From NCBI GenBank assembly GCA_001780035.1, contig MFEY01000004.1, forward strand, positions 10,399 through 74,398: DNA of 64,000 nucleotides, in the 5' to 3' direction. The number at the start of each line of letters is the position of its first letter. The first letter of the stretch is position 1. The translations under genes and the position numbers were made by a program. Under the pieces are notes generated by a model that saw only the letters and a program-made list of their open reading frames with translations, had not been told where the DNA came from and did not search any database. This document shows positions 1,685 to 55,689 of the stretch, piece by piece. This stretch comes from Candidatus Doudnabacteria bacterium RIFCSPHIGHO2_12_FULL_48_16. GTDB lineage: Bacteria > Patescibacteriota > Doudnabacteria > UBA920 > O2-02-FULL-48-8.

Positions 1685-3091
1685 ATGACACGCACACTCA
1701 TCAAAGACACTGCCAACAAGGTTGGCGAAATGGTTTTGATCAAAGGCTGGGTTAATATCCGCCGCGATCACGGCAAACTGATCTTTTTGGATATCCGCGA
1801 CCGATCCGGGCTCATTCAGGTGGTGATCAATCCAAAAGTTTCCGCTGAAGCCCATCAAGCCGCTTCGGAACTGCGCAACGAATTTGTCGTCGAACTGGAA
1901 GGCATGATCAATCCCCGCTCCGAAAAGCAAATCAACGCGCATTTAGAAACTGGCAAGATTGAAATGGAAGTTACCAGACTTGAGATTTTAAGCCACGCCA
2001 AAAATTTACCTTTCGAAATCAACGAAGACACACGCAAGGTCAACGAGGAAATGCGGATGAAGTTCCGCTACCTCGATTTGAAATCCGAACGCATGGCCAA
2101 GAACATGCGCCTGCGCTTCAAAGCGGCCGGATTAGTCCGCGAATACCTGACCAAAGAAGGATTTGTCGAAATCGAAACTCCAATGCTGACCAAATCCTCG
2201 CCCGAAGGCGCGAGAGACTTTTTGGTTCCCTCCCGCCTGCAACCAGGAAACTTTTACGCCTTGCCCCAAGCCCCCCAGCAATACAAGCAACTGCTCATGA
2301 TTGCGGGGATCGAAAGATATTTCCAAATGGCCCGCGCCATGCGGGATGAAGATTTGCGCGGCGACCGCCAATTGGAACACACCCAGATCGATTTGGAAAT
2401 GTCATTTGTCAAAGAACGCGATGTCTTGGATCTCGTGGAAGGCCTGATGATTCATGTGGCAGAATCGTGCGGCAAAAAGATTTGGAAGAAGCCTTTCCCG
2501 GTTTTTACCCACGAAGAAGCCGTAACGCAATTCGGCGCGGATAAATTCGATTTGCGTGGGCCTGACAAAGATCCTAATGTAATGGCCTTTGCCTGGGTCG
2601 TGGATTTCCCGCTTTTGGAATGGGATGAAGACGAGAAGCGCTACACCTTTGCTCATAATCCTTTTTCCGCGCCTAAAGCTGAACACGTCGAAAAGCTCAT
2701 GAAGGGCGAGGATTTGCCGAACTTGCGGGCCCAACAGTACGACTTGGTTTGCAATGGCTTTGAATTAGCGTCCGGCGGTGTCCGCATCTCGGACCCGACC
2801 GTCCAGCGCAAAGTCTTTGAAATCATGGGGCTCACGCCAGAACAAACCGAAGAGCGCTTTGGTCATTTGATCGCGGCTTACGAATACGGAGCGCCCCCGC
2901 ATGCCGGCATGGCTCCGGGATTTGACCGCCTCGTCATGTTGCTAGCGAATGAAGAAAACATTCGTGAAGTTATTGCCTTCCCAGTCAATTCCTCGGGCCG
3001 CACTTCAGTTATGGATGCACCGTCCCCGGCGACAGACAAACAATTGAAAGATCTTCATATCAAGGTTGATTTACCCAAAGACAAGAAATAA
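1685..3091 (+). CDS. aspS: Aspartate--tRNA ligase, short form lacking the GAD insertion; probably non-discriminating
   Basis: Class II motifs FYALPQAPQQYKQLLM and GMAPGFDRLVMLL. Length 468 aa. gatB is present in the window. Confidence 0.85.
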   Translation: MTRTLIKDTANKVGEMVLIKGWVNIRRDHGKLIFLDIRDRSGLIQVVINPKVSAEAHQAASELRNEFVVELEGMINPRSEKQINAHLETGKIEMEVTRLEILSHAKNLPFEINEDTRKVNEEMRMKFRYLDLKSERMAKNMRLRFKAAGLVREYLTKEGFVEIETPMLTKSSPEGARDFLVPSRLQPGNFYALPQAPQQYKQLLMIAGIERYFQMARAMRDEDLRGDRQLEHTQIDLEMSFVKERDVLDLVEGLMIHVAESCGKKIWKKPFPVFTHEEAVTQFGADKFDLRGPDKDPNVMAFAWVVDFPLLEWDEDEKRYTFAHNPFSAPKAEHVEKLMKGEDLPNLRAQQYDLVCNGFELASGGVRISDPTVQRKVFEIMGLTPEQTEERFGHLIAAYEYGAPPHAGMAPGFDRLVMLLANEENIREVIAFPVNSSGRTSVMDAPSPATDKQLKDLHIKVDLPKDKK

Positions 3092-5540: not shown

Positions 5541-6545
5541 TCACTCTATTTTACCCGAAAGCAAGTCCTTGGCCAGGGCCCACATTCCCCAATCATTATG
5601 CTGTTTGGCCAGCCAATACCACCATTCCACTCCCCAAAGATAATTGTCATGAAACCCAGCGGCTTTCGCATATTCGATATTCTCGCGGAAGACCTTGGGA
5701 TTCATAAGAGCCATCTGAGTATTAAGGTCAATTTTGCTGACTGAGTCCGAAAGCCAAGGCTCGGCCTGCAACTCCACGCCGATCAGATTGCGCATGGGCG
5801 TAAAAGTTTGAACGACCCCGGCCTTGATTCGAAAAAATGCCGGCGGCAGAGGGTAGCGAAAATATCCGGTAAAATCATTGCGGACCACCCGATACATAGT
5901 TGTTCCAAACAAGTCCGCCCCGGTGGTTGCGGTTGGGAGCCAACGGCCAAACTCCCCGCTATCGGCCACCATAACGGGCCGGCTATCCAATGATTTCACC
6001 AAAGCTATTTCTTCTTTCAAAAAATCCCGGTTGGCTTTTGGGCACATTTCGCCAAATCCAAACAATGGTTCATTCTGAACTTGCCAAATTTTAACCGCTT
6101 CAAAAGATTTAAAATGATTAATGGCCGCAACGACCATTTCAAGCTCAGCATTCTGCTGCTCAAATTCCGATAAGTCCCTGGCCCACGAAGGGACGTGGCA
6201 CTCGGGCCAACGGGGTTGTTTTTTACCGACGACCAAAATGACTTCGGTATCATATTGTCGGGCTAAATTTAAAAAATCATCAATTTCGGCAAAATCATAG
6301 GTGCCTCGCTGGCGTTCGATCTGGTTCCAATAGGCACTAAGGCGAATTTTGTCCGGTTTTAAATCGGACAAGATATCCAAATACAGCTGCCGAGGATCGA
6401 ATCCCAGTTCCCTAGCCCGGGATTGAGAAAAATTCAGGCCCCAGCTAAACTCAGTAGCCGGTTGAAATTGATGATAGAAAAAAATCCCAGCCGCCAGGAA
6501 AACTAAAACGATAAAACCTGATAATTTTAAATACTTATGCTTCAT
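5541..6545 (-). CDS. Membrane-anchored glycoside hydrolase, clan GH-A (GH5-like) TIM barrel
   Basis: N-terminal TM, QVQNEP catalytic-acid-type motif, W/Y-rich barrel. Confidence 0.55.
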   Translation of the reverse strand: MKHKYLKLSGFIVLVFLAAGIFFYHQFQPATEFSWGLNFSQSRARELGFDPRQLYLDILSDLKPDKIRLSAYWNQIERQRGTYDFAEIDDFLNLARQYDTEVILVVGKKQPRWPECHVPSWARDLSEFEQQNAELEMVVAAINHFKSFEAVKIWQVQNEPLFGFGEMCPKANRDFLKEEIALVKSLDSRPVMVADSGEFGRWLPTATTGADLFGTTMYRVVRNDFTGYFRYPLPPAFFRIKAGVVQTFTPMRNLIGVELQAEPWLSDSVSKIDLNTQMALMNPKVFRENIEYAKAAGFHDNYLWGVEWWYWLAKQHNDWGMWALAKDLLSGKIE

Positions 6546-6651
6546 CCCGTTAGAAATAGTGATTAGTTAATAATTAGAATCTTTATACTGGAACCCGTTC
6601 AGTTCTATTTTGGTCATAAATCAAACTACGTAAAATTTCTAACGGGACTCA
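6546..6651 (-). repeat. Inverted-repeat element copy a (CCCGTTAGAAAT...ATTTCTAACGGG). It fills the gap between the transporter stop and the GH5 ATG
   Basis: The first 26 nt are identical to copy b at 52458. The arm abuts the ATG. Confidence 0.7.
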
Positions 6652-7542
6652 TAGACTAAGAAATACCAAGCCAGTTGTAATTAAAGCGATGGCAATAATT
6701 TTTTGCGCCAGAATACTGCCGGTAATATCTTCTTTCAAAATCTTGGGGTAAAATTCGGAAAACACGATACCCAACAGCAGCACGAACACAAATTGAACCC
6801 CCTGGAGAGCATTAACAATCACAACGCTGCCGAGCGCTATCGCGTAATTTTGAAGCAAACTGCCGGCGGCGCCGGCCATATGGGACGAATAAAACAAAAA
6901 TTTACTTTGTTTTGATGTCTGTCTCGGGGCGGCCATAATATCATGGCGGGTTTTCGGGCTGAGCAACAATAAGGCTGCCCCCAGCGCTAATCCCAACCGA
7001 GTCCAAATCAAACCGGAAATAAAATTAGTTTCATTATATATATATTTGGTCAGAATGAAGGAGACTGCAAATAAAAATGCGGCCAGGACCATATCGCGCC
7101 AGCCCAAGGCGTGCCAGCCGGTCTTGGTCTTTTTGAAATCAATCACAACGGCGCCAATCACAAGTAAAGCAAACGCCAATAGCTGGGTGTGGTTTAGGCT
7201 ATCCAGGCCGGTAAAGTAAGCCAAAATCAGAGTAAAAAACGGAACCAGCCCGCCCTCAATCGGCAAAATTCTCGAAATGCTGGCGCGCTGGATCGACAAA
7301 TAGAAAAAATATAATGCAAAGGTAAACGCGATACCGGCGAGCGCGGCAACCAGATAATTGGCCGGAGTCAAGGCGTGGATGCCGAAGGGCAATAATGCCA
7401 GAACGGCCAGACTGCTGATTCCCACATAAAAAGCATAAACCCCGGGGTTGCCGATTCTTTTGGTCAGCAAAAATTTATCAGCCACGCCATTAACGGCCAA
7501 TAAAATATAAGCGATAACGGCAATCAAAATCCAGGAGACCAT
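6649..7542 (-). CDS. DMT/EamA-like 10-TM transporter
   Basis: Duplicated 5-TM hydrophobic architecture. Confidence 0.5.
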   Translation of the reverse strand: MVSWILIAVIAYILLAVNGVADKFLLTKRIGNPGVYAFYVGISSLAVLALLPFGIHALTPANYLVAALAGIAFTFALYFFYLSIQRASISRILPIEGGLVPFFTLILAYFTGLDSLNHTQLLAFALLVIGAVVIDFKKTKTGWHALGWRDMVLAAFLFAVSFILTKYIYNETNFISGLIWTRLGLALGAALLLLSPKTRHDIMAAPRQTSKQSKFLFYSSHMAGAAGSLLQNYAIALGSVVIVNALQGVQFVFVLLLGIVFSEFYPKILKEDITGSILAQKIIAIALITTGLVFLSL

Positions 7543-8852: not shown

Positions 8853-8927
8853 TGGTGACCTCACAGGGAATCGAACCCTGATTCTAGCGTTGAGAACGCT
8901 ATGTCCTAACCGTTAGACGATGAGGCC
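8853..8927 (-). tRNA. tRNA-Glu (anticodon CTC)
   Basis: Cloverleaf reconstructed by hand: acceptor GGCCTCA/TGAGGTC, T-loop GGTTCGATTCC, anticodon loop TTCTCAA, encoded CCA. Confidence 0.8.
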
Positions 8928-9034: not shown

Positions 9035-10375
9035 TTAAATTCTATTTACAAGCACTTCGGGTAGCTGGAGTATTTTGTCTCCTTGGCTAAACCCGTTTCT
9101 TATTATCGCCGTGATTACACCATTCGGCAGACTTGATTTTTTAGTAGCAGATCTCCCCACGTGATAACGGGAATCAAAGCCAGTCTTCCCTAATGCAATA
9201 GGTATCACTTTTATGCCCGCTGATCCCAATAACGCATCCATCGGGGCTTTGATATCTTTAAACTGACTTAGCCAGGCATTAGCTTGGTCCAGAGGTCTTA
9301 AGCTTTCGGGATCGCCTGTGGCACTCATATACTTATACCCCTCGTTATTAACCAATTCATTATATAACAGGTCGAAGCCACCTAGATTATCCGTGATATA
9401 TCTTGACTGATCAAAATTTTTAAGTTTTTCACGCTCCCCGCTGGTAAGAACACAAAATTTAAACAACACATCTTTCACGCTCTGAGTGATTTTCTCCTGT
9501 TGCTCAACCGAACCTCCCGCACCTATCTCGCCTTTAACGAACTTTCCAACCACGCCTAAATTTTTTGCCGCATTTGCATACCGCTCCACTGGCTGCAACA
9601 TACCCTTAAAAGTATTTCTAATACCCAGGTCTTGTGGGCGTTCTGAGGAGGCTTTATCGATTTTCGAGTTGAACACAACCAGCTTGACAAAAAAATCTGT
9701 CTGACGCTGCTTCACCTGCTCTATATCTTCTTGATTTCTTGAATAGACATCCAGTACTAAAGCCTGATCCAGAGTCAATCTTTCATCTTCAGCAATTCCA
9801 GCTCGCCATGTTTGTTCTTCCGATGTGGCAGTCTGTAGGTCGCTCTGCATTTGACTGAGGGATTGTTCAAGATCAACCACTTCCTTCTTGTAGCCGGGGA
9901 TAAAAACTTCTTCCCATTTGGTAAGTGCCGCTTGAGCCTCGGCAAGTGCTGCTTTAGCACGTTCTACACCGTCTTTTTCGGACACCAATAGAGAACCAGG
10001 TTTTACCCGAGCTTCCGCTTGTCTTAACTCATCATGCGCTTGTTGTAGAAATTCTTTACGCTTTTCTACGCTTTCTAGGAAATCTCTACTCCCTCGACGG
10101 AGTTGCGATTTGGCATATTCCAGAGGAGTGCGGGCTTCAATCATCTTACGCACAATGGCGGTACGGGCTTCAAAAAAATTGATTGATTTGGATAAATTCG
10201 CCTGTCCTTCCGGTCGTTCCAGAAGAGCTGTTATCTTGCCCTTTAGTGCTTCGGGGGCTATCGCCGCTACTCCTGAAAAGTCTTGTTCTACTGTGTTATT
10301 ACCAGCAATTTCTGGCCTACGCATTCCTGTGCTTGGATCAATATCTTCTCCGAATCTCTGTTCTTCATCATCCAT
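9035..10375 (-). CDS. Hypothetical 446-aa coiled-coil-rich protein, cargo of the tRNA-Glu island
   Basis: No recognisable domain. Codon usage is rich in AGA/AGG/GGA/ATA, unlike neighbouring genes. Confidence 0.5.
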   Translation of the reverse strand: MDDEEQRFGEDIDPSTGMRRPEIAGNNTVEQDFSGVAAIAPEALKGKITALLERPEGQANLSKSINFFEARTAIVRKMIEARTPLEYAKSQLRRGSRDFLESVEKRKEFLQQAHDELRQAEARVKPGSLLVSEKDGVERAKAALAEAQAALTKWEEVFIPGYKKEVVDLEQSLSQMQSDLQTATSEEQTWRAGIAEDERLTLDQALVLDVYSRNQEDIEQVKQRQTDFFVKLVVFNSKIDKASSERPQDLGIRNTFKGMLQPVERYANAAKNLGVVGKFVKGEIGAGGSVEQQEKITQSVKDVLFKFCVLTSGEREKLKNFDQSRYITDNLGGFDLLYNELVNNEGYKYMSATGDPESLRPLDQANAWLSQFKDIKAPMDALLGSAGIKVIPIALGKTGFDSRYHVGRSATKKSSLPNGVITAIIRNGFSQGDKILQLPEVLVNRI

Positions 10376-10667: not shown

Positions 10668-10716
10668 TAACCGTTAGACGATGAGGCCTGAAATTAGCTT
10701 AATTATATCGTTTTGT
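10668..10716. repeat. Direct repeat copy B of the tRNA-Glu 5' segment
   Basis: See copy A. Confidence 0.7.
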
Positions 10717-28934: not shown

Positions 28935-29139
28935 TGAATTTTTGTTTTGTTTTTGTTTCGACAGTTGTCTTTTGTGACAGAGAGATTCTCTGTAAACTTT
29001 CTACTTATATTATAGCATATATTACTCCGACGCGCAAGACCTTTCAAGAATCTTTCTTAAGTCTTGTAGTCGGAGCCCCGATTTCATTAAAAATATTAAT
29101 AGCAGACGTCGGGGTAGCAAATTTTTCGGCATCCGTCAA

Positions 29140-29159
29140 CCTGCCTGCCGGCAGGCAGG
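29140..29159. repeat. Perfect palindrome CCTGCCTGCCGGCAGGCAGG, copy 1
   Basis: Identical 20-mer at 29935 and 59653. Confidence 0.8.
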
Positions 29160-29228
29160 TTAAAAAAACAGCCGCTGGTGTGCGGCTGCTTGATTTTTGA
29201 TGAAAACTGGAAAGAACTATAAAAAGTT

Positions 29229-29927
29229 TTAGGATTTGATGTCTTTTTCAATCATATCCAAAACCTTGGATGCGTGCTCCTTACCACCGAGGCCAAATGC
29301 GAGTCCGCCGGCAATTGCCAGCATGGCAATAATGCCGGTAAACAACGTTTGGACGAACGGCTGAGCAACTCCGAGCTGGTCTAAGGTCGCAAGAACCGTA
29401 AAGACCATAACTGCCCATTGGGTAATTGAACCCAAAAGATCAGCGGAGTGAAGACCGGCAGCTTTGACGCTGTGGCGGACCAGGCGGGCCAAGAATTGAG
29501 CCACCATGGTGCCGATCAGCATAATACCAGCTGCGGCAATCACCATCGGAATATAAGCCAGCACGCTGTTTAAGAACGCGGAAATTTGGGTGAGGCCGAG
29601 TATGTCTGCCGCAGCCAAGAAGATAGCTACGAGCAGGAACCATTTAACCAGCCAGGCCACCGTGCCGGAGACACTCATTCTGACCCCAGTGCGGGCGGAC
29701 AATTCGTCCAGACCCAGCTTGTCGCCGACTTCATCGAGTTTGAGCGAGTTGAGAACTTGTTTGACAAGTTTGGCCACAAACACGGCCACAACCCAGCCCA
29801 CGATCAGGATGATAACTGCGACCAGGAATTCCGGCAGAAATCCGATCAGGCGACTATAAAGAGCCTGAAGTGACGTGGTCACTGCCGAAGAATAAGCGTT
29901 ACCATAATAAGTTGACATTGAATTCAC
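29229..29927 (-). CDS. Membrane protein with two conserved-TM-helix-type repeats (hypothetical)
   Basis: Multi-TM; internal repeat architecture. Flanked on both sides by the 20-nt palindrome. Confidence 0.5.
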   Translation of the reverse strand: MNSMSTYYGNAYSSAVTTSLQALYSRLIGFLPEFLVAVIILIVGWVVAVFVAKLVKQVLNSLKLDEVGDKLGLDELSARTGVRMSVSGTVAWLVKWFLLVAIFLAAADILGLTQISAFLNSVLAYIPMVIAAAGIMLIGTMVAQFLARLVRHSVKAAGLHSADLLGSITQWAVMVFTVLATLDQLGVAQPFVQTLFTGIIAMLAIAGGLAFGLGGKEHASKVLDMIEKDIKS

Positions 29928-29934
29928 CCCCTTC

Positions 29935-29954
29935 CCTGCCTGCCGGCAGGCAGG
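29935..29954. repeat. Perfect palindrome CCTGCCTGCCGGCAGGCAGG, copy 2; 8 nt upstream of the RBS GGGAAGGGGG of gene 29229-29927
   Basis: Identical to the other two copies. Confidence 0.8.
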
Positions 29955-30505
29955 CGCTTCCCTCAGCGCCTTATGCGACAGGATATCCGATCAAATGATC
30001 GAACTCGACCTAGTTAATTTTCCAATTCACCCCCCACACCAGAAAACAGTGCGATGGATGCCCCAGACTTCACCAGTCTAGAAAAATATCTTAAAACGAA
30101 AACATTTTTCACGACTTGTGGTGTGGGGGTTAACTTGGAATCAAAGTTAATTAGACGCGATCCGAATGGTCCGAATTTTCATCCGAATTACCCGAATAAC
30201 TGCTGTTTAAAACTCTTTTCGGCTTCAGATAAGCTGCTCTGAAATTTATTATTAAGCCAAGTTCCGCATTAGCCGCCCGGAGATATCTTTGCATGCATAC
30301 CTGGAAACAAATGCCGGTTATTTGATAAGACTCTTTGGGAAATATTATTCGTGGCATTCGGATGCATTCGTGGATTAGGATCGCGTTTATATCCAGGAAT
30401 CACGATAAGCAAGACAAAAAGACCAAGGCCCGAAATATCGGTTTTACTTGGCAAATCGACAATTGAGCTTGTCTTTTGTTTCCATCAAATTTTATCGTTA
30501 TATAT

Positions 30506-30514
30506 ATTATAGCA
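30506..30514 (-). promoter_or_regulatory. Extended -10 TGCTATAAT (minus strand) at the start of a roughly 550-nt leader
   Basis: Motif match. Confidence 0.4.
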
Positions 30515-30592
30515 CATTTTGGAATCGCCGTCAATGAGCCAATAAAAAACGGGTCAACGGTAAGCTTTGTCATGCTTTCCGTTGACCCCACG

Positions 30593-32092
30593 TCAGATGG
30601 CGAACAGGCGTTCGGCGATCCCGAAGTGGATGCCGACGTCGTCCCTCACCGTCAGCCGGTTACCCTGAGGATCTTCGCCGGTGCCGCACGGAATCGTGCG
30701 GACCTTACCATCGGCGAACATGCGGTAGAGCTTGTCGCGCAGCGCGTCAGCGACCTGGCCCCGGTTCTCTCCCGGCTTGACGGTCGCGTTGCCGATCAGA
30801 TACGCGACACGCGTGCCATCCGAGATGAAGGTCCCATCCTTGTAGCCCATCCCCGCCGGCAGCAGGGTCACGTTGTTCTTCTTGAGCCCCTTGAGATCAA
30901 GCATCATCGGCTCGCCCGGCTTGTGGCGCCAAGGGTAGCCTTTGTATTCCCCGCCCGGGCCGGGACCGGTGACGAGCGCGATAGTCATCGCGATCTGGTC
31001 ATCCCTCACATCCGGCTTGACCTCGTCGAGGTGCCCTTCGAACATCGCCATGATCAGCTGGCCGAAGTTGCGCACGAGGCGCAGCATGACCTGGAACTCC
31101 GGTTCGGGCGGCCGAATGTTGATCTCGCAGACGCGAATCGACGCCGGCTTGCCGAACTCGTTGAAGAACACCATGCATCCCGGATACAGGATGCAGGGCC
31201 GCAGGATGCCGCGGCGCCTCATCTCCTCGATCAACGGCCGGAAAACTTGCTTTACCGCCATCTCGAGCAGTTCCTGAGAATGCACGGGGTGCGGCCCCAG
31301 GCTCGCCATGCCACCGGTCACCGGATTGTTCCGGCTGATCTGACCGGCGAACCGGCCCTGGTAGTCCATGGCCGTGGGCAGGATCTGGAAGTTGCCGTGC
31401 ACGTCGACGAGGGCAGTGAAGCTGACCTCGATTCCCGCCATGTAGGACTCCATGAGCAGGGGCCAGGGAAGACCCGGCCCAAGCAACTTCCTGTAGGACT
31501 CGGCGTAATCTGCCATCAGCGTCTCGTAGACTTCGCGGATCTCCCACGGGCTGCCGATGAACCGCGCGCCTTTGCCCGCCGCCTGGAACGGATACTTCGC
31601 ATAGGCGCCGCCGTGCTGTTCCAGGTATCGCAGACACGCTCTGAGAAACGGCTGGTAATGCCTGGCTTCGATCGCAACCCAGTCGGGAGCCACCGGCACC
31701 CGCGCCGAAGCGCAGAGTTGTTTGCATGTTACCTTGTCGCCCTCGATGAATGAAGCCGCCGCGGTCAGGCCGGCGACCCGGTCCCCGAACCCCGCTTCGG
31801 TCATCCGATCCACGAAGCCGTCGATCTGCAGGGCTTCCGGCATCGGCACCACGTAGTCGATTTCGTCGTCTGACAGCGCGCGCAGCACACGCGCGGCGTA
31901 ATCCTGCACCGAGGAACCTCCCGGCACCTCGAGGAAATCAACTGGCCAGCCAGCCAGTTCGGCATAGGGCTTCATTGCGGGCATGCCACGAATCACCACT
32001 CCCTGGAACTCGCCTTTCTCGCCGCTACGGCTGACAGTCAGTGCCGAAAGAAACGTGCGGGCGTCAGAGCCTGCAAATCCGATTCGCTTCAT
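30593..32092 (-). CDS. ATP-grasp ligase of the PurD (phosphoribosylamine--glycine ligase) family, with a long N-terminal extension
   Basis: CEINIRPPEPEFQVMLRL aligns with PurD EFNCRFGDPETQPIMLRM; AAGKGARF aligns with AAGKGVIV. High GC. Confidence 0.6.
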   Translation of the reverse strand: MKRIGFAGSDARTFLSALTVSRSGEKGEFQGVVIRGMPAMKPYAELAGWPVDFLEVPGGSSVQDYAARVLRALSDDEIDYVVPMPEALQIDGFVDRMTEAGFGDRVAGLTAAASFIEGDKVTCKQLCASARVPVAPDWVAIEARHYQPFLRACLRYLEQHGGAYAKYPFQAAGKGARFIGSPWEIREVYETLMADYAESYRKLLGPGLPWPLLMESYMAGIEVSFTALVDVHGNFQILPTAMDYQGRFAGQISRNNPVTGGMASLGPHPVHSQELLEMAVKQVFRPLIEEMRRRGILRPCILYPGCMVFFNEFGKPASIRVCEINIRPPEPEFQVMLRLVRNFGQLIMAMFEGHLDEVKPDVRDDQIAMTIALVTGPGPGGEYKGYPWRHKPGEPMMLDLKGLKKNNVTLLPAGMGYKDGTFISDGTRVAYLIGNATVKPGENRGQVADALRDKLYRMFADGKVRTIPCGTGEDPQGNRLTVRDDVGIHFGIAERLFAI

Positions 32093-32136
32093 GGGTCCAC
32101 TCTCCTTCTAAAAATCCCCCTGCAACTTGATTTCAT

Positions 32137-32173
32137 AGCTTATCACTTTGTCCGCGCTTGGGCAAATAAAAAA
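32137..32173 (-). promoter_or_regulatory. Duplicated promoter-like module TAGCTTATCACTTTGTCCGCGCTTGGGCAAATAAAAA, copy 1, upstream of the purD-like gene
   Basis: Identical 37-mer at 33000-33036. The minus strand gives TTGCCC-N17-TAAGCT. Confidence 0.5.
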
Positions 32174-32228
32174 CGTCAACGGAAGCCTCCCAACTTCCGC
32201 TGACGTATCGTGAGAAAACAGGCCTCGT

Positions 32229-32963
32229 CTACCCCTTCGGGAAGATATGCCGGGCGCAGCGCTTGATCTGGTCGAGTAGCGCCGCTTCGTGGGGGAGAAC
32301 CAGATCGTCGTCGAACTTGATCTCCTGCACGCGGTTCTCCGAGAATGCCCGAAGGGTTCTGATCTGCACCTCGTGCTCGAACGGCAGGAGGCGCGCGGCC
32401 AGAGTCTCGGGATCATCGGTCTTGATCTCGATCGAGGATCGGGCGTAGTCGAGCACCGCGCCCTCGTCGAATTCCACCGTGACCCGCTGAGCCACGGCTT
32501 CGGTCCAGAAGTTGCGCTGCATCTCGCGCACGAATGCCAAGCGCGCGCAATGGGTCTGCCGGCCGTGCAGCTTGCCGAAGTCAGGCCGGCCGGGACGGAT
32601 CGGGCCGGCGTGCTGATTGACTGCCATGCCCGCAAACGCTTCGATGAGATTGGCTGGCGTCCTGGGGATCCAGCCATACTGGCCCCAAAAATCAGCGCCA
32701 CACCGCCGCGTGATCCGCAACAGTTCTTCGCCGTAGGCTTCGGGCGAGGAGAATTCCGACTTCTTGACCACGAAGATGTCCCTGCCCATCTCGAGCCCAT
32801 GCGCCTCGGCCTTCATGATCGCGCCGATCCCGTCCGTGCTCGCGATCACGCACGCCGGTTCAACGTAAGGCAGACGGCTATCCTTAGTTGCCTGCAGGAT
32901 CTGGTTCATGGTCGTGCCGCCGCCGGATACCGCGAGCGCCACCCGTAACTTATTTCCTCTCAC
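32229..32963 (-). CDS. Formyltransferase of the PurN/Fmt family (PurN-like)
   Basis: VALAVSGGGTT N-terminus, NQHAGPI (N-x-H-x-x-LP-type) and downstream H and D. Probable GTG start after AAGGGGGA. Confidence 0.55.
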   Translation of the reverse strand: MRGNKLRVALAVSGGGTTMNQILQATKDSRLPYVEPACVIASTDGIGAIMKAEAHGLEMGRDIFVVKKSEFSSPEAYGEELLRITRRCGADFWGQYGWIPRTPANLIEAFAGMAVNQHAGPIRPGRPDFGKLHGRQTHCARLAFVREMQRNFWTEAVAQRVTVEFDEGAVLDYARSSIEIKTDDPETLAARLLPFEHEVQIRTLRAFSENRVQEIKFDDDLVLPHEAALLDQIKRCARHIFPKG

Positions 32964-32999
32964 ACGTCCCCCTTTGAGAATAATAAAAAGGACTTCCAG

Positions 33000-33036
33000 A
33001 TAGCTTATCACTTTGTCCGCGCTTGGGCAAATAAAA
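33000..33036 (-). promoter_or_regulatory. Duplicated promoter-like module, copy 2, upstream of the purN-like gene
   Basis: See copy 1. Confidence 0.5.
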
Positions 33037-33098
33037 ACACCGCTTGATGAGGGCGGAGTTTTTAGGTTTGAATTCTGGTTTAACCCGTCTGACGGGTT

Positions 33099-33383
33099 TT
33101 AGAGAATCGCGTCTTTGGCAGCTTTGGCTACCCGGAACTTCACGACCGTCTTAGCGGCAATCTTGATCGATTCGCCGGTGGCGGGGTTGCGGCCCATGCG
33201 GGCATCGCGGTGCTTTTTGAGCAGCTTGCCCAAACCCGGGATGGTGAACTCACCATTGTTCTTAGCTTCGCTGTAAGCCAGATTGGCAATAGCTTCCAGC
33301 ATTTCGCCGACCTCTTTGCGGGTCTTGCCGGTCTTTTCGGCAAGCGCGTTGAGGGTTTCGGACTTGGTCATACCTTTGGCCAT
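33099..33383 (-). CDS. hup: DNA-binding protein HU/IHF family
   Basis: Typical HU sequence GEFTIPGLGKL...RNPATGESIKI. Confidence 0.85.
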   Translation of the reverse strand: MAKGMTKSETLNALAEKTGKTRKEVGEMLEAIANLAYSEAKNNGEFTIPGLGKLLKKHRDARMGRNPATGESIKIAAKTVVKFRVAKAAKDAIL

Positions 33384-33513
33384 AAGGATACCCTTTCTTA
33401 AATTTTACCCCTACACCACGGCTTGGCGTGAGGGCTTATTAACAATACGTAAACCAGTATAGCAAATCCCCAATGTTTCGGCTAGTCTTTGTCAAGATTC
33501 TCAGCAAGGGGGG

Positions 33514-35295
33514 CTATTTGCTAAACCCGCCGGCTTGAATCTGCCAGAGTTTTTGGTAAACGCCCTGGCGGGCCTTCAGAAGCTCCGCGTGCTTGCCTTC
33601 TTCCACGATTTGGCCTTTTTTGATGACCACGATCCGATCCATCTGCATGATCGTGCTTAAGCGGTGCGCGATTGAGATAGTGGTCTTGCCTTCGATCAAA
33701 TGCTTGAGCGCGTCCTGAATCAGCAATTCGGATTCCGAATCCAGGCTCGAGGTGGCTTCATCCAGAACCAGGATCGGCGCATCCTTAAGAATTGCCCGCG
33801 CGATCGCCACGCGCTGGCGTTCCCCGCCGGAAAGCTTCACACCACGCTCGCCAACAAAGGTATTGTAGCCGTCCGGGAAAGAAGTAATGAACTCGTGAGC
33901 GTGGGCGAGCCGGGCGGCTTCGTATATTTCTTCTTCGGACGCATTCGGCCGCGCGTAAGCGATGTTGTCATAGAGCGACCGATGAAACAGGATCGGATCC
34001 TGCGGCACGAGCGCGATCTGGTCGCGCAAGCTGTCCTGCGTAACTTTCGAAATATCCTGACCGTCGATCAGGATCGCGCCTTCCTGAATGTCGAAAAATC
34101 GCAGCAGCAATTTGACGATCGTGGTTTTGCCGCCGCCCGACGGGCCAATCAGGGCCACCCGCTCCCCCGGCGCAATCGTCAGATTGAAATCGCCAAAGAC
34201 TTTGCGCTTGCCGCTGTAATTGAAGCTGATGTGGTTGAAATTAATCTGGCCTTTGGCCACGCGTAGGGGCTGGGCCTGCGGCGCATCCTGAATTTCATGC
34301 GGCGCGGTCAGAATCTCGGTCATCTCTTCCGCATCGCCCAAGCGCGAATAGATATTTTTTATCTGCCGGCCCAGATCCCACAACCGCTGGAACATTTGGA
34401 TCATATAACCTTGCAACAGGGCAAAATCGCCCAAAGTCAAACCACCCTGTTTCCAGCTTTTGACCGCCAAAGTCAGAATGGTAAATTCCAAAATGGCAAA
34501 CAAAGCCCCTTGGATAGCCTCGTTGATCGAACCCAAATCCCAAGTCCACTTCCTGACCAGATATTGCTTCAGGGTCAGGCGGCTAAACGATTTCGATTCC
34601 CTGCTCAAGCCCCCGAACAATTTCACATTGATGTTGTTGGTCACCGTATCCGCCAGGCGGCCGCCGACTTCCGTATCCAGTTCCGCGCTGGTCACGTCAT
34701 ATTTCAATTTGTATAGAGCGAACCAAACCGTGAACGCCACAAACACCGCCGACCAGATCAAAACGACCAGGGCAAAAATCGGCTTCAGGAAATATAAAAC
34801 CGCGGCGATGATGATGATCTTGATTGCCGTTGGCATCAGGCTCCAGTAGATCTGGTCCGTGATGTCCTCGAAGGCCCGCTCGTATCGGCCGATTTTTTTG
34901 ACCAGGCTGCCGGCAAAGTTATTGCTGAAGAAATTGAATGAGTGCCGGTGCAGATAATTGAAACAGGTATTGAGCAGATCCCGCATGATGCTGGGCTGAA
35001 AAACGTTGTTGACGAATGTCGCCAACCGCCAAAACAGCCAGGCCACCGCGGCAGCGGCCAGGATCTTGGTCACCACCATCAGAATCGGCGCCACCGGAGC
35101 GTTAGCCGCCAACAGGTTGAACAATTGCTTATAAAAATACGGGCCAAAGGATTCGGCCGCCGTTGCCCCGAGCAGGCCGATGGTCAATAGCAAAATCAGC
35201 CCAGGATAGCGCCGGGCATGCTGCCAAAATATTCGAAATGTCTGTTTACTCTTGAAATCCATAAATATAAGCAAGCCAAATAAAGCCTGCTCCAC
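33514..35295 (-). CDS. ABC exporter, fused permease and ATPase (MsbA-like)
   Basis: 6-TM N-terminal half, Walker A GPSGGGKTT, LSGGERQRVAIARAIL. Confidence 0.85.
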   Translation of the reverse strand: MEQALFGLLIFMDFKSKQTFRIFWQHARRYPGLILLLTIGLLGATAAESFGPYFYKQLFNLLAANAPVAPILMVVTKILAAAAVAWLFWRLATFVNNVFQPSIMRDLLNTCFNYLHRHSFNFFSNNFAGSLVKKIGRYERAFEDITDQIYWSLMPTAIKIIIIAAVLYFLKPIFALVVLIWSAVFVAFTVWFALYKLKYDVTSAELDTEVGGRLADTVTNNINVKLFGGLSRESKSFSRLTLKQYLVRKWTWDLGSINEAIQGALFAILEFTILTLAVKSWKQGGLTLGDFALLQGYMIQMFQRLWDLGRQIKNIYSRLGDAEEMTEILTAPHEIQDAPQAQPLRVAKGQINFNHISFNYSGKRKVFGDFNLTIAPGERVALIGPSGGGKTTIVKLLLRFFDIQEGAILIDGQDISKVTQDSLRDQIALVPQDPILFHRSLYDNIAYARPNASEEEIYEAARLAHAHEFITSFPDGYNTFVGERGVKLSGGERQRVAIARAILKDAPILVLDEATSSLDSESELLIQDALKHLIEGKTTISIAHRLSTIMQMDRIVVIKKGQIVEEGKHAELLKARQGVYQKLWQIQAGGFSK

Positions 35296-48191: not shown

Positions 48192-49361
48192 CTAGCCCAG
48201 AACGTCGATGTATTTATACATGCCGCCGGTGTTGAAGACGACCACCGTGTCGTCCTGTTTGATCGAACCGGCTTCACGGAGCACGTGCACCGCGTGCATC
48301 GCCGCACCACCCTCAGGTGCCGCATTGATGCCTTCAAAGCGACCGAGGTCGCGCATGCCCTGAACCATGTCCGTGTCCGCGACGGCGACCGCTGCGCCCT
48401 GGCTCTCACGCACGGCGCGCAGAACCAGAAAATCGCCAATGGCCCGAGGCACCCGCAAGCCGTCCGCGATTGTGGTCGCGTTCTCCCACGGCCGGGCCTT
48501 CTCCGTACCTTCATCGAATGCACGCACGATCGGCGCGCAGTTGGCGGCCTGAACCGTGACCATATGCGGCCGCTTGACTGGATCGATCCACCCCATGGCG
48601 CTCATTTCCTCGAACGCCTTCCACATGCCAACCATGCCGGTTCCGCCACCGGTCGGGTAGATGATCCAATCGGGCAAGCGCCAACCGAACTGTTCGGCGA
48701 GTTCGTAGCCCATGATCTTCTTGCCCTCGATGCGATACGGCTCCTTGAGCGTAGAGACGTCATACCAGCCGAGCGGTCCGCCCGTTTCGGCGGCAATCCG
48801 ACCGGCGTCAGTAATGAGTCCATCCACGAGTGTGACCTTGGCGCCGTACAACTCGCATTCGCGGATGAACGGCGTCTTCACGTCGCGCGGCATAAACACC
48901 TGAGCCTCAAGTCCCGCCTTGGCCGCATACGCTGCCATGGCACAGCCGGCGTTGCCGGCCGTGGGGATGGACAGGACCTGGGCGCCGAGATACATGGCCC
49001 GTGTCACAGCCGCGGACAGCCCGCGCGCCTTGAACGAATTGGTCGGGTTCAGTGATTCATCCTTGACGAAAAGTTTCGTGAGACCGAGCTCGCGCCCCAG
49101 CCGTTCGGCGTGAACCAGCGGTGTCCAACCCTCGCCGAGCGACACCGGCGCCTCACCAGGCAGCAGTGGCATCACTTCGCTATACCGCCACATCGATCGC
49201 TCGTCCATGATCATGGCGCTGCGACCCTTTTTGCAGGCGGCATCGAGGTTGTAGCGCACCAGCAACGGCATCCCGCACTCGCAGAGATGGTGCGGTTGTC
49301 GAGGATCGAATGGACCGGCGCCACAAGGCACTGAACATTCCAAATAAAATGACAGTCGCAT
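48192..49361 (-). CDS. thrC: Threonine synthase with N-terminal Zn-ribbon (high-GC gene)
   Basis: FVKDESLNPTNSFKARG PLP-lysine signature; CSVPCG...CECG ribbon. Confidence 0.75.
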   Translation of the reverse strand: MRLSFYLECSVPCGAGPFDPRQPHHLCECGMPLLVRYNLDAACKKGRSAMIMDERSMWRYSEVMPLLPGEAPVSLGEGWTPLVHAERLGRELGLTKLFVKDESLNPTNSFKARGLSAAVTRAMYLGAQVLSIPTAGNAGCAMAAYAAKAGLEAQVFMPRDVKTPFIRECELYGAKVTLVDGLITDAGRIAAETGGPLGWYDVSTLKEPYRIEGKKIMGYELAEQFGWRLPDWIIYPTGGGTGMVGMWKAFEEMSAMGWIDPVKRPHMVTVQAANCAPIVRAFDEGTEKARPWENATTIADGLRVPRAIGDFLVLRAVRESQGAAVAVADTDMVQGMRDLGRFEGINAAPEGGAAMHAVHVLREAGSIKQDDTVVVFNTGGMYKYIDVLG

Positions 49362-51356: not shown

Positions 51357-52457
51357 TCAGTCAAACCTGACCGCCCGTTGCCGCGCAATCACGCTTTGCA
51401 CCAGGCCCAAAGCGAGCATAGTGGTAATGAGCGAGCTGCCGCCATAACTGAGCAGCGGCAATGGAATGCCGGTCACTGGCATCAAACCGACATTCATCCC
51501 AATGTTGATTAAAAACTGGATCAAGAGCATAAAAAATATCCCCAGGGTCAGATACATCCCAAAGTTATCGCGGGCCAGCTTGCAGGCTTTAATGATTCGG
51601 GCAAACATGACGCCAAACATCGTTAAAATAAACAAGCTGCCGACCAGGCCCAATTCTTCAGCCGTGGAAGCAAAAATGAAGTCAGTTTGCCGCTCCGGCA
51701 AAAACTTAAGCTGGGATTGCAGGCCGCGGCCGACTCCCCGGCCGGTCATGGAGCCTGACCCGACCGCGATGATTGATTGAATGACATTGTAGCCCCGGCC
51801 GCGGGGATCGGCTTGCGGGTCCAAAAACGTATAGATCCGGTTTTTCTGGTAATCATGCAGCACAAAAAACCAGCCGAACACGCCCAAGACCACGGCGATC
51901 AAAGCCAATATGGCCAGATGTTTTTTGTTCATTCTGGAAAACAGCAACATGCAAAGCCAGGTCAAAAATAGGACCAATGAGGTCCCCAAGTCCGGCTCAA
52001 TTAAAATCAGGCCGGCCGGGACAGCGACGTATACGGCGGAGAGCAGGACATACCAGAGACTCTTAATCTTTTCGCCTGATTGATCCAGGAATTTGGCCAT
52101 AATGATGACCATAAACAGCTTGGCAAATTCCGCCGGCTGCAAACGGAAAATCCAGAGGTCAATCCAGCGAGTCGAGCCCTGAATGTTTCGGCCGAATAGC
52201 CAGACCGCGATCAGCAGCAAAACCGTAATTATATACAAAACTCCCGTGGTTTTTTTTAGCTTGCGATAATCAAAAAACGCCACGGCAAACAAAGCCACAA
52301 AACCCAGGACGGCGTAAACCGACTGGCGACCGAGCAAATTGGTTGGGCTATTGAGTGTTGTGGAATAAATCATCAACAAACCCAAAACGAGCAGCAGAGA
52401 ACTGCTGCTGAAAATATAAAGATCAAAGTATTTGAATCCCGAGAGCCAATTTCTCAT
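51357..52457 (-). CDS. ftsW: SEDS family peptidoglycan polymerase FtsW/RodA
   Basis: 10 TM; SIIAVGSGSMTGRGVGRG and FIFASTAEELG motifs. Confidence 0.85.
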   Translation of the reverse strand: MRNWLSGFKYFDLYIFSSSSLLLVLGLLMIYSTTLNSPTNLLGRQSVYAVLGFVALFAVAFFDYRKLKKTTGVLYIITVLLLIAVWLFGRNIQGSTRWIDLWIFRLQPAEFAKLFMVIIMAKFLDQSGEKIKSLWYVLLSAVYVAVPAGLILIEPDLGTSLVLFLTWLCMLLFSRMNKKHLAILALIAVVLGVFGWFFVLHDYQKNRIYTFLDPQADPRGRGYNVIQSIIAVGSGSMTGRGVGRGLQSQLKFLPERQTDFIFASTAEELGLVGSLFILTMFGVMFARIIKACKLARDNFGMYLTLGIFFMLLIQFLINIGMNVGLMPVTGIPLPLLSYGGSSLITTMLALGLVQSVIARQRAVRFD

Positions 52458-52524
52458 CCCGTTAGAAATAGTGATTAGTTAATTTATATTATTTTTACAA
52501 TCAACGCAGAATTTCTAACGGGAC
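52458..52524 (-). repeat. Inverted-repeat element copy b; fills the gap between the stop of gene 52525-53343 and the ftsW ATG
   Basis: TGA-GTCCCGTTAGAAAT...TAACTAATCACTATTTCTAACGGG-ATG. Confidence 0.7.
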
Positions 52525-53343
52525 TCATTGCTGGTCAAAAGGCGATATGCCCGCATCGGTTGATAAAATATTACGGTCAAAAATATTTATTTCCGGGACA
52601 ATCTCAGCCCGCACTGCGCCGGTAACCGGGCTGGCCCAAACATACTGGAAGGTCCGCGTTTCGCCGGACCGGACCTGATTTAGATAAGTGAAATTCACTC
52701 CCACCACTTCATTTTTGGCATTATAAAGCGCCACTGGCAGATTGATTTGATTGATGGTAAACGCGCTCAGGTTCCGGATTCCCGCTGAAACCAAGGTCGC
52801 ATCATTGCCGGTTTTAAAACTGACGCGCTCCAATTCAACGGTCAGACTCAGTGCCGGCTTGCGCAAGAACTCCGTGGCCTCCAAAGTTACCTGTATGGTC
52901 TCCGGTTTCTGTTGGGAGGTGAAACGAGAAAACACGACCAGTTTTTCCGAAGCCGGGAGAATAAAAACTGCACCGGCAATCCGGTTGATCAAAGTGCCCC
53001 CCAAGGTTTTGAATTCCACGGTGTAACGCTGGGCGGGAGTGCCCCATTCCAAATTGACGTTTTTGATCCTAATATATCCGGAGTAAGCGTTCTGGCCGAG
53101 GCTGAAAATTTTCTGATCCATAACCGAGAGCGGCACGGTGACGGCTTCGGTGTAAATCACCTGTGGCGGATGATAACTGCTCACGATTGCCCGCGTCAAC
53201 AAAAATTTGGCCGTATAAAACATCGGAATGATAGCAACAATCGTGATGATCAGGGCATACCACCATCCCCGGCCGGTTTCGGTCAAAAGATCGCCGGCAA
53301 TCAACCCCCATTCTTGCAACCGTTCATTTTTATTTAAAGCCAT
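52525..53343 (-). CDS. N-terminally anchored hypothetical protein (beta-rich periplasmic domain)
   Basis: Single TM, no recognised domain. Confidence 0.45.
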   Translation of the reverse strand: MALNKNERLQEWGLIAGDLLTETGRGWWYALIITIVAIIPMFYTAKFLLTRAIVSSYHPPQVIYTEAVTVPLSVMDQKIFSLGQNAYSGYIRIKNVNLEWGTPAQRYTVEFKTLGGTLINRIAGAVFILPASEKLVVFSRFTSQQKPETIQVTLEATEFLRKPALSLTVELERVSFKTGNDATLVSAGIRNLSAFTINQINLPVALYNAKNEVVGVNFTYLNQVRSGETRTFQYVWASPVTGAVRAEIVPEINIFDRNILSTDAGISPFDQQ

Positions 53344-54215: not shown

Positions 54216-54563
54216 TCACGACTGGACCGGTCGGTCGGACTGAGGAGCGATGGCGGCAATGGTAGCGCGGGTATATGCGATACCTCTGCGGTGCATCTCC
54301 GCCAAAACCCGATTTGCGTTCATCGGGTTCTCGATCACGTTGTAGCCAACGGCGGCTGTGACCGAACACTCGCCATTGGGCTTGTCGATGACCACGGCCG
54401 ACATGACCTTGAAATCGACAGCCTGACAAATTGTGCTCAAGCTGCCCAGAAACTGCTGCGTCGCGTGGTTGATCAGCTCTGTGGCCATCGCTTCGCGCTT
54501 TGCCTGATCCTTTTCAGCGCGAATCCGATCGAGGCTTGCCGACGGGCTATTCCACATTATCAC
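54216..54563 (-). CDS. Small protein, possibly GlcG/DUF336-like
   Basis: High-GC ORF overlapping the asparaginase gene by 17 nt; weak resemblance only. Confidence 0.3.
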   Translation of the reverse strand: MIMWNSPSASLDRIRAEKDQAKREAMATELINHATQQFLGSLSTICQAVDFKVMSAVVIDKPNGECSVTAAVGYNVIENPMNANRVLAEMHRRGIAYTRATIAAIAPQSDRPVQS

Positions 54564-55689
54564 TCCTCCTCCTCCTCGCTGTCGGCTTCGGGTTGAACCA
54601 CATCGTTACATCCTCATCGATTCCCGGAAGCAGTTCGCCCACAATGTTGGTTGAGATGAACTCCTGAATTCGCGCCGGATCGTTGGGGTACATCGCGATA
54701 GCCTGGCGGAATTTGAAATCCGCCATGTCTGGGGTCAGACTCTCGAGACTCAAAGCCCCAGCGTCCTTGGCCTTCTTGCCCAGTTCGTAACGGTCAAGAA
54801 TGACTCGGCCATCTTCAAACGGAGACAAAATTCCCACGTGGATGCCCGCTTCCGTTGCGGCCTTGATGGCATCGATCCAAGAGTACTCCTCGCCGGATTC
54901 ATCATCCCGCCAGTTCTTGTCAGGGATGTTGCCGGCGCCCTTGGCCTCGAGAATCACACCCTTGAGCCGGCGTTTGGTCACCATGTCCATCAAAACCCAC
55001 GGCGGTGTGTCGGCTGAAACCTTAAAGGTCGCGACCCAACGCTCGAAGTTCACGTCGAGACGTAATCCCTGAACAGCCAGGACGCGATCCTTGCGCTGCA
55101 GCCCTTCCTCGAGCCGGATGTGTGGCCATGAATGCGCCACGGGATGACGGCCAGGGGTATGAAACGCATTCGGATCGGACTCTGCGCGCTTGCGCACGCG
55201 ACTGCCGTCCAAAACGTCTCCGATACAGACGCTGTAGACGCCCACCACGCCATGGTTATGGAATGCCTTGGCGACTCGCAACGTATTGCCGATCTGCATG
55301 GCGACGTCTGAGCCAATTTCGCTCTTGCTCATCTGTGCACCGATCACGAAGACCGGTTTCTGCAACGAGAGCTTGAAAATCATGCTCAAGGCGCCACAGG
55401 TTTCAGCGAGACTGTCCGTGCCGTGAAGAACGACGAACGCGTCGTGGTCGTCGTAGCTCTTACGAATCTCTCCAGCCATGGCCACGCGCTCGATGTGCTG
55501 GATGTTCGTTGAATCCTGGCGACTCACGAAGTCAGCCAAGGTCAACTCAACGTCCAGTGGGATGTTGATTCCTCTCAGCAACTCCTCGGCCGACTGCGCC
55601 GGCCGCAGAGGTTCACCGATCATCCCCAAAGTGCCACCGGTGTTTAGAACGTAAACCTTCATCTCGTCACTCCTACTATTTTTGCACAC
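54547..55689 (-). CDS. L-asparaginase family protein (high-GC gene)
   Basis: VLNTGGTLGM (TGGTIA-type) and HGTDSLAETCGAL (HGTDT-type) motifs. Confidence 0.7.
   Translation of the reverse strand: MCKNSRSDEMKVYVLNTGGTLGMIGEPLRPAQSAEELLRGINIPLDVELTLADFVSRQDSTNIQHIERVAMAGEIRKSYDDHDAFVVLHGTDSLAETCGALSMIFKLSLQKPVFVIGAQMSKSEIGSDVAMQIGNTLRVAKAFHNHGVVGVYSVCIGDVLDGSRVRKRAESDPNAFHTPGRHPVAHSWPHIRLEEGLQRKDRVLAVQGLRLDVNFERWVATFKVSADTPPWVLMDMVTKRRLKGVILEAKGAGNIPDKNWRDDESGEEYSWIDAIKAATEAGIHVGILSPFEDGRVILDRYELGKKAKDAGALSLESLTPDMADFKFRQAIAMYPNDPARIQEFISTNIVGELLPGIDEDVTMWFNPKPTARRRRSDNVE

Follow-up and report, generated by a model that had tools for sequence, protein, structure and literature searches.

In purine biosynthesis a given step can be taken over by a different enzyme, as exemplified by PurT replacing PurN, PurP/PurO replacing PurH and the class I versus class II forms of PurE. 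Steps 2 and 3 of the pathway belong to PurD, the glycinamide ribonucleotide (GAR) synthetase (EC 6.3.4.13; TIGR00877; structures of the E. coli enzyme, 1GSO, and of human GARS, 2QK4), and PurN, the GAR formyltransferase (EC 2.1.2.2; TIGR00639). This work concerns a purN-purD pair located within a 64,000-nucleotide stretch of the Candidatus Doudnabacteria bacterium RIFCSPHIGHO2_12_FULL_48_16 genome (assembly GCA_001780035.1, contig MFEY01000004.1, positions 10,399 to 74,398), referred to below as the window. Both genes are intact open reading frames (ORFs) on the minus strand: gene A (30593..32092, 499 amino acids) is related to purD and gene B (32229..32966, 245 amino acids, GTG start) to purN.

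We consider it fairly probable that the pair unites a PurN of the kind found in the candidate phyla radiation (CPR) with a member of a divergent PurD family of about 500 amino acids (family A) residing at the canonical purD position, and that the two genes form separate units served by a duplicated native promoter. Gene A would then be either a foreign replacement of purD (xenologous displacement) or the survivor left after the loss of the canonical purD. Its product would make GAR from phosphoribosylamine (PRA), glycine and ATP, and the gene B product would formylate GAR with 10-formyl-tetrahydrofolate to formylglycinamide ribonucleotide (FGAR). The locus is real and neatly organised from known kinds of parts, and family A is apparently an uncharacterised PurD subfamily. 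Literature searches on purine genes in Doudnabacteria yielded nothing beyond a general remark that soil CPR lack most of nucleotide synthesis. A preliminary description of the pair, made from the letters of the DNA, had recognised homologues of purine steps 2 and 3 in it, and this identification stands; the other observations made there were confirmed in part, and the interpretation built on them is partly supported.

Gene A and its relation to PurD

The only family to which gene A shows homology is PurD, with matches to PurD structures in the PDB reaching 1e-21. Among the Pfam domains GARS_A alone passes the threshold, covering a part of the domain (residues 211-332), and GARS_N and GARS_C remain sub-threshold. 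This partial view of GARS_A gave rise to the proposal of an unusual N-terminal extension of about 170 residues, which has to be abandoned: in a MAFFT alignment gene A matches canonical CPR PurDs from residue 1, and its predicted structure fits PurDs over the full length. The approximately 75 additional residues form insertions distributed over the chain.

The structure was modelled with AlphaFold2 from 30 family members (pLDDT 88.7, pTM 0.89) and displays the full-length N-B-A-C domain fold of PurD. The top 15 PDB matches of the model are all GAR synthetases (E-values from 6e-36 to 1e-27), and it superposes on these 15 solved structures over about 495 columns with target TM scores of 0.80-0.87. 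Biotin carboxylases come next at about 1e-20, at least seven orders of magnitude weaker in E-value.

The motifs kept in gene A include the (A/G)GKG B-loop, TGGM, E-x-N-x-R..E-P-E..Q, D-G-(T/S)-R-V and R-x-D-(I/V)-G, and residues G173, K174, G175, T259, G260, G261, E323, N325 and R327 are invariant among the 30 family A members. The ATP-grasp motifs (B-loop, E-x-N Mg site and TGGM) align to those of 1GSO and 7LVO. In human GARS, Arg13, Glu14, Asp217, Arg292, Asp295, Glu297 and Arg385 were implicated in glycine, PRA or phosphate binding (PMC2978367). According to sequence alignment, Arg13, Asp217, Arg292, Glu297 and Arg385 are conserved in family A as R12, D243, R327, E332 and R428, respectively, Asp295 corresponds to a glutamate (E330) and Glu14 to a threonine (Thr13). 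The counterparts R12, D243, R327, E330, E332 and R428 are invariant or near-invariant in the family. Judging from the model and the alignments, gene A appears to encode a complete but divergent PurD.

Gene B and the CPR-type PurN

Gene B matches PF00551 (Formyl_trans_N) and TIGR00639. Its catalytic residues N116, Q117, H118 and D166 (Asn-x-His and Asp) are invariant among 29 family members and align to those of the PurN structures 4DS3 and 3P9X. The GTG start is backed by the RGNKLR N-terminus, which is conserved in two related contigs, L005 and L034 (see below). All relatives at 40-50% identity that are named or whose context could be read come from CPR. The B-type gene lies between purF and the canonical purD within full pur operons in Falkowbacteria and in a CPR genome of 899 kb.

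When JGI metagenomes were scanned with B alone as the query, no relatives were found; the family alignment as the query returned 80 loci, 40 of them with flanks of 2.5 kb or more on each side. In 35 of these 40 well-flanked loci there are at least two further pur genes, typically in the order purL-purQ-purF-[B]-purD-purE-purM-purC; the remaining five contain only purD (one locus), only purM (one) or no pur gene (three). A family A gene accompanies the B-type purN in none of the 80 loci. Gene B is therefore the ordinary CPR form of PurN and not a gene foreign to CPR. Since many CPR carry a B-type purN in complete pur operons, the earlier supposition that CPR usually lack the pathway does not apply to those lineages.

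State of the locus in related genomes

Reading along the minus strand, the window contains an ABC transporter gene (33514-35295), the gene of an HU-type DNA-binding protein (33099..33383, PF00216) with its terminator, a 38-nt module, gene B, a terminator, a second copy of the 38-nt module, gene A and a terminator. An unrelated strong promoter, a 665-nt gene-free spacer and a mechanosensitive-channel gene follow. The HU gene is the conserved upstream neighbour of the pair, and the ABC-(CSD)-HU neighbourhood is common to the window and three related contigs, L005, L019 and L034, which differ in what comes after it.

In L005, HU and its terminator are followed by TTGTCA-N17-TGCTAAGCT, a purN 80% identical to gene B and, after 13 nt, a canonical purD, the product of which is 40% identical to a CPR operon PurD and 26% to gene A. 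In L034 the same promoter is intact (TTGCCT-N17-TGTTAAGCT) and precedes a purN pseudogene and then unrelated genes, with a Cys-rich 150-amino-acid ORF in the place where purD would be. In L019, HU and its terminator are followed by TTGCCT-N17-TGATAAGCT, a 5' untranslated region (UTR) of the A type, gene A (78% identical), a terminator, the same strong TTGACG..TATAAT promoter as in the window and the channel gene. Gene A thus occupies the slot where L005 has the canonical purD. A search with the L005 PurD fragment returned only distant and mostly partial PurDs (best identity 54%), and no Doudnabacteria locus extending beyond purD.

The window and L019 differ by exactly one unit, which consists of the purN UTR, purN, the terminator and one 38-mer. 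The upstream promoter copy of the window keeps the ancestral left junction (from HU terminator to promoter) and the downstream copy keeps the junction to the UTR of gene A, as in L019. This difference could result either from an insertion with promoter duplication in the window or from a deletion in L019 by recombination between promoter copies. The two window copies match each other exactly; in the versions of L019 and L005, many spacer positions are different. This contrast argues for a recent duplication or gene conversion. Being identical direct repeats, the two copies could serve to delete or re-insert purN.

A further related contig, L001, is syntenic with the window over 1.6-17.4 kb, and its gene A (78% identical) is located at a different place, between a glycoside hydrolase family 1 (GH1) gene and tRNA-Glu, beside a PIN gene of 30% GC; the A-type UTR is kept there. 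We looked for an att-like repeat around gene A in L001 and found none. The tRNA-Glu neighbourhood of L001 (8001-10814) holds both gene A and the PIN-domain gene. In the window, the 5' 22 nt of tRNA-Glu(ctc) (8853-8927) are repeated 1.74 kb away (10668-10689), bracketing a 446-amino-acid gene at 9035-10375. This neighbourhood looks like an insertion hotspot.

The arrangement seen in the window was recovered in contigs of several independent assemblies and sources (JGI, ENA, NCBI, Logan). Gene A has a 100% identical counterpart among the proteins of a Candidatus Doudnabacteria bacterium RIFCSPHIGHO2_01_FULL genome, and other genes of the window match GCA_001777705.1 (contig MFEU01000011.1). One contig, L014, was considered as a purN-less variant of the same strain; this was rejected, as the 136-nt spacing shows that its first ORF is the C-terminal end of purN.

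Duplicated putative promoter module and terminators

The 38-nt module (39% GC) is repeated exactly before each gene, at 32135-32172 and 33000-33037, and is the longest exact repeat in the window, where shuffled sequences give an expectation of zero copies. The preliminary description had reported it as an identical 37-mer: the identity was right, the length one nucleotide short. On the coding strand it reads TTTTTATTTGCCC-AAGCGCGGACAAAGTGA-TAAGCT-AT, in agreement with the TTGCCC-N17-TAAGCT proposed earlier, and can be interpreted as a promoter comprising an upstream T-tract, TTGCCC, a 17-nt spacer ending in TGA (extended -10 TGn) and TAAGCT. In copy 1, before gene A (32135..32172, minus strand), the -35 element is at 32165-32160 and TGA with TAAGCT at 32142-32137; in copy 2, before gene B (33000..33037, minus strand), the -35 element is at 33030-33025 and the -10 element at 33007-33002.

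Copy 1 joins an A-type 5' UTR at a junction homologous to that of L019. Copy 2 stands directly after the HU terminator (33040-33056, minus strand), at the same position as in L005, L019 and L034, where an element of the TTGCC(C/T)-N17-TGnTAAGCT type follows the terminator. Given this position and the conservation in relatives, the module is predicted to be the resident promoter downstream of HU in this clade. One of the two copies is a lineage-specific duplication, so only the second copy is new. The idea that each ORF had been fitted with a promoter therefore holds inasmuch as each gene has its own copy of the module; the fitting itself does not, the promoter being resident at this position.

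The start codon lies 35 nt downstream of the -10 hexamer in gene B and 44 nt downstream in gene A; a G-rich ribosome-binding site stands before each of them. Read directly from the minus strand, the 5' UTR of gene A (32093..32134) contains the ribosome-binding site AAGGAGAG and is homologous to the UTR before gene A in L019 and in L001, the latter having gene A at a different locus. The 5' UTR of gene B (32967..32999, minus strand, also read directly) contains the G-rich ribosome-binding site AAAGGGGGA, and its 3' part resembles the purN UTR of L005 and L034. Both UTRs are too short for a riboswitch, and Rfam searches detected no riboswitch or other RNA in or around the pair (whole window at the gathering threshold, 29900-30620 at E <=1).

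Each gene is followed by a strong intrinsic terminator. The terminator of gene B (32173..32206, minus strand) has a 15-bp stem and TTTTTT (-23.8 kcal/mol, z -6.05), and its U-tract runs into promoter copy 1, where it forms the T-tract upstream of the -35 element of gene A. The terminator of gene A (30544..30588, minus strand; hairpin 30551-30588) is an inverted repeat with a U-tract (-24.9 kcal/mol, z -5.1). Genes B and A would thus be two monocistronic units, each equipped with the same 38-bp core promoter, a short UTR carrying a ribosome-binding site and its own terminator, and the identical promoters could provide the same transcriptional input to two consecutive enzymes without co-transcription. 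Directly after the gene A terminator there is a strong promoter, TTGACG-N17-TATAAT with a TG (TGcTATAAT; 30506..30534, minus strand), which is conserved in L019 and marks the downstream boundary of the pair.

The 665-nt gene-free spacer downstream of gene A (29928-30592) is about 380 nt longer than in L019. It contains a tiny ORF starting with METK, conserved in L019 along with the strong promoter, and long imperfect CCGAAT-rich inverted repeats (about 30152-30199 versus 30345-30389, and 30020-30044 versus 30116-30140); a small inserted element and a structured RNA are both conceivable here. A perfect palindrome, CCTGCCTGCCGGCAGGCAGG (20-24 nt), is present in identical form at 29138-29161, 29935-29954 and 59651-59674. 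It flanks the mechanosensitive-channel gene on both sides, the third copy being near 59.65 kb, and the copies probably serve as shared terminator hairpins acting in both directions. A second duplicated intergenic module (6542-6571 plus 6634-6652 versus 52454-52483 plus 52510-52528) consists of a stop codon, CCCGTTAGAAAT, a loop, ATTTCTAACGGG and ATG, so that a hairpin joins the gene end to the next start codon. It precedes a GH42-like gene and ftsW. Short regulatory or intergenic modules seem to be used repeatedly in this genome.

Distribution of family A

A protein search with gene A gave 872 significant matches. Most of the matches listed are proteins of about 500 amino acids with 51-55% identity, and few reach 61-78%. 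Those in the 51-55% range that are named come mostly from metagenome-assembled genomes of Desulfobacterales or from the Olavius Delta-1 symbiont, so that outside CPR the family is seen mainly in bacteria of the sulfate-reducer type. Family A members are called hypothetical proteins at NCBI and PurD at JGI. No homologue of the family was found among the viral contigs searched.

In Desulfobacterales, a family A gene is located 2-3 kb from purE in four loci (L002, L021, L022, L025), and in Desulfobaccales 1-3 kb from purH in five (L028-L030, L032, L033). The presence of two different pur neighbours in two Desulfobacterota orders argues for a purine role of the family. The closer relatives (61-78%) lie on contigs that are CPR or CPR-like, namely L001, L019, L018 and L015/L020; L015/L020 belongs to Candidatus Moranbacteria RIFCSPLOWO2_12_FULL_48_12. 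When a neighbour-joining tree is rooted with canonical PurD, the CPR-type A sequences form one clade, sister to the Desulfobacterota clade. A orthologues have a GC content of 0.52-0.63 on CPR contigs and of 0.39-0.66 in Desulfobacterota, some Desulfobacterota genes having a GC content at third codon positions (GC3) of 0.86. Gene A is foreign to the usual CPR pur operon. Both ORFs had earlier been taken for horizontal acquisitions: this fits A, which is phylogenetically foreign to CPR, and fails for B, the PurN of CPR pur operons.

Base composition and age of the pair

As initially suspected, both genes are GC-rich: GC is 0.631 in gene A and 0.630 in gene B, and GC3 is 0.808 and 0.805, as compared to means of 0.493 (sd 0.037) and 0.577 (sd 0.068) in the other 52 ORFs of at least 100 amino acids (z about 3.4-3.7). 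All of the ten GC-richest 1.5-kb windows of the whole stretch fall on the pair, while the surrounding spacers are AT-rich (41-49% GC). The many spurious overlapping ORFs mentioned in the preliminary description are indeed there, many long ORFs being seen on other frames.

Relatives do not corroborate a recent acquisition. Between the window, L001 and L019, gene A shows 77-78% identity, and gene B is 80% identical to its L005 copy, values comparable to those of flanking proteins (ABC transporter 71-76%, channel 78%, HU 82-84%, GH1 67%, PBP 58%, MraW 63%). At four-fold degenerate sites, A and B match in 0.43-0.58 of positions versus 0.31-0.36 expected from composition, and the flanking genes in 0.34-0.46 versus 0.27-0.33. 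The match is somewhat higher for the pair than for its flanks, yet far from that of a recent transfer. Diverged synonymous sites combined with 78-80% protein identity imply that A and B have long been under purifying selection, and both predate the split of these species, the event being old relative to sister-species divergence. Of the features of a recent island, atypical composition is present, and neither absence from close relatives nor a much lower divergence than in the flanks was seen. As the orthologues are as diverged as the flanking genes, elevated GC is no mark of a fresh import.

The high GC3 of the pair has persisted, staying near 0.8 in the window and in L001. High expression is not an obvious reason, nearby ribosomal protein genes having a GC3 of about 0.58-0.60. 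GC3 is 0.70 in the HU and ABC transporter genes (33099-35295) versus 0.46-0.70 in their L005 and L019 orthologues, forming a GC gradient towards the pair. The window has other GC-rich genes as well: a gene of a pyridoxal phosphate-dependent (PALP) enzyme (48192-49361, minus strand; GC 0.62, GC3 0.74) and an asparaginase-like gene with the small ORF after it (54216-55689, minus strand; GC 0.56-0.58, GC3 0.70). Accessory metabolic genes may generally have a raised GC content in this genome. Elsewhere in the window, the aspartyl-tRNA synthetase gene (1685-3091, versus 1290-2702 in L001) is 95% identical to its orthologue, with 58-67% for the neighbouring syntenic genes, which suggests recent recombination or very strong constraint.

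Alternative explanations

Several findings weigh against a CPR PurN working together with a divergent PurD. Both proteins score below the equivalog cutoffs, gene A with 133.4 bits versus 288 for TIGR00877 (match spanning residues 68-436) and gene B with 40.9 bits versus 150 for TIGR00639. The GSGGREHA signature is changed to AG(S/T)DxRT in gene A (hence Thr13 in place of human Glu14), GNxGTA is lost in favour of RG(T/M)P(A/S)M, and QDHKR became MDY(Q/P)xR, the Lys219 equivalent being absent. Of the 12 positions of the E. coli consensus, the promoter module agrees with only 7, and a consensus scan made no call on it. Most CPR hold the purine pathway in one operon, unlike here, and neither a tblastn search of the window nor the 10 kb read beyond each end (84 kb in all) revealed another pur gene, in line with the earlier remark that none lie nearby; any further pathway genes would have to lie elsewhere in the genome. 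Gene A is solitary, without a pur neighbour, in L001, L019, L018 and the Moranbacteria genome. purN is absent from the L019 locus, and the L034 pseudogene (6051-6723) has lost about 20 codons, has a broken frame and contains an in-frame stop. The L005 contig ends within the canonical purD, so coexistence of canonical purD and gene A in some relatives is possible. Finally, the CPR clade of A is not nested in the Desulfobacterota clade of the neighbour-joining tree, which leaves the direction and source of transfer unproven. The low scores, the altered motifs, the lack of pur genes within 84 kb, the conservation of A in the four contexts where it is solitary and the loss or decay of purN in relatives (among which L019 keeps A) would also agree with a chemistry outside de novo purine synthesis, the rest of the pathway being missing: family A, with or without PurN, could join glycine or some other small acid to another amine, or the pair could constitute a short shunt, for example on spontaneously formed phosphoribosylamine, or a reverse route on scavenged GAR or FGAR. 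Such a role seems unlikely to us in any of these variants, since the residues implicated in glycine and PRA/phosphate binding are conserved in A, purE and purH are neighbours of the family in two orders of Desulfobacterota, A stands at the canonical purD position of L005 beside an intact PurN of the pur-operon family and no conserved alternative partner genes surround it. The salvage or non-purine role put forward in the preliminary description is likewise not what the evidence favours. A narrower version appears rather improbable, namely that family A is an uncharacterised PurD-like ligase maintained as a stand-alone gene by purifying selection in a few CPR (Doudnabacteria and Moranbacteria) that lack the rest of purine synthesis. 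If it were true, A (together with PurN here) would do something other than the classical pathway, e.g., a two-step shunt acting on spontaneously formed phosphoribosylamine, or a reverse operation on host-derived GAR and FGAR yielding glycine, ribose-5-phosphate, a formyl unit and ATP.

Alternatively, the pair could be a decaying relic, the last remnant of an ancestral CPR pur operon with no physiological role left. In sister genomes the same locus does display all stages of erosion, from purN with purD (L005) through a purN pseudogene without purD (L034) to no purN at all (L019), and the usual operon partners are missing from the 84 kb searched. We find this improbable, given that both ORFs are intact with their catalytic residues kept, that protein identity remains at 78-80% despite near-saturated synonymous sites and that each gene retains a promoter, which was even duplicated, a ribosome-binding site and a strong terminator. 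The composition outliers (z about 3.5 in both genes, with AT-rich spacers) and the mostly Desulfobacterota membership of family A, in part with GC3 of 0.86, are what could be expected if a two-gene cassette had recently been imported from a high-GC donor and a host promoter then added to each ORF. This has very little probability in our view: the two genes differ in origin (B is of the CPR type, A of a type shared with Desulfobacterota), their divergence from the orthologues in sister species equals that of the flanking genes, outside CPR the closest relatives of A reach only 51-55% identity, L005 and L034 share purN at the HU locus and L019 shares A there, and the GC of CPR A orthologues varies from 0.52 to 0.63. 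As for an assembly or binning chimera joined at the 38-mer, some short-read assemblies do break at the repeat (L012 and L013 begin 72 nt upstream of A). However, contigs of several independent assemblies and sources read across both junctions, L014 runs from the end of B into A, and in related CPR contigs A or B has the same neighbours, so we practically dismiss this explanation.

If the pair is a CPR PurN with a replacement PurD, as we favour, the locus would present a clean, position-resolved case of a core-pathway enzyme swapped for a distant foreign homologue in a reduced genome, with alternative states on display in sister genomes: canonical purD, purN pseudogene, purN loss and a relocated new gene. 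The locus also illustrates that a raised GC content is no sure sign of recent transfer in a CPR genome. Duplication of the 38-bp core promoter fused to a terminator U-tract may be seen as a compact natural rewiring of an operon into two identically driven units. Family A comprises hundreds of Desulfobacterales and Desulfobaccales sequences and a few from CPR that fall below the NCBI PurD model. Given the naming of the family, pathway-completeness surveys of those groups may wrongly score purine step 2 as missing.

Comparison with known systems

Gene A shares with PurD the four-domain ATP-grasp architecture over the full length, the ATP/Mg motifs and most of the residues proposed for glycine and phosphate binding. 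The context is also similar, as it adjoins purN here and the family is found near purE or purH in Desulfobacterota. It differs in having about 75 extra residues as internal and C-terminal insertions, in being only 20-22% identical to solved PurDs and in its altered GGREHA, GNxGTA and QDHKR signatures, the score being under half of the equivalog cutoff. NCBI names the family 'hypothetical protein', and the sources examined contain no characterised member.

Gene B resembles PurN in its Formyl_trans_N fold family, Asn-x-His...Asp residues and SGGG(T/S) phosphate loop, and the B family typically lies between purF and purD in CPR genomes. Unlike solved PurNs, to which it is less than 30% identical, gene B has about 30 more residues, with an insertion behind the NxH motif, scores well under the equivalog cutoff and is detached from the pur operon in this window.

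Extended -10 sigma-70-type promoters constitute the TGnTATAAT class. The duplicated module resembles them in having TG one base upstream of the -10 hexamer, 17-nt spacing, a TTGnnn -35 element and a T/A tract upstream; its -10 hexamer TAAGCT, however, has only three of six consensus matches, and a promoter function is suggested by its position and its conservation in four related genomes.

As in the known displacements of purine-pathway genes, one step of the pathway would be filled here by a different or foreign version of the enzyme, and this at the same chromosomal position. In contrast to those cases, the replacement A is a distant homologue from the same family and not an unrelated enzyme, its GAR synthetase activity being presumed.

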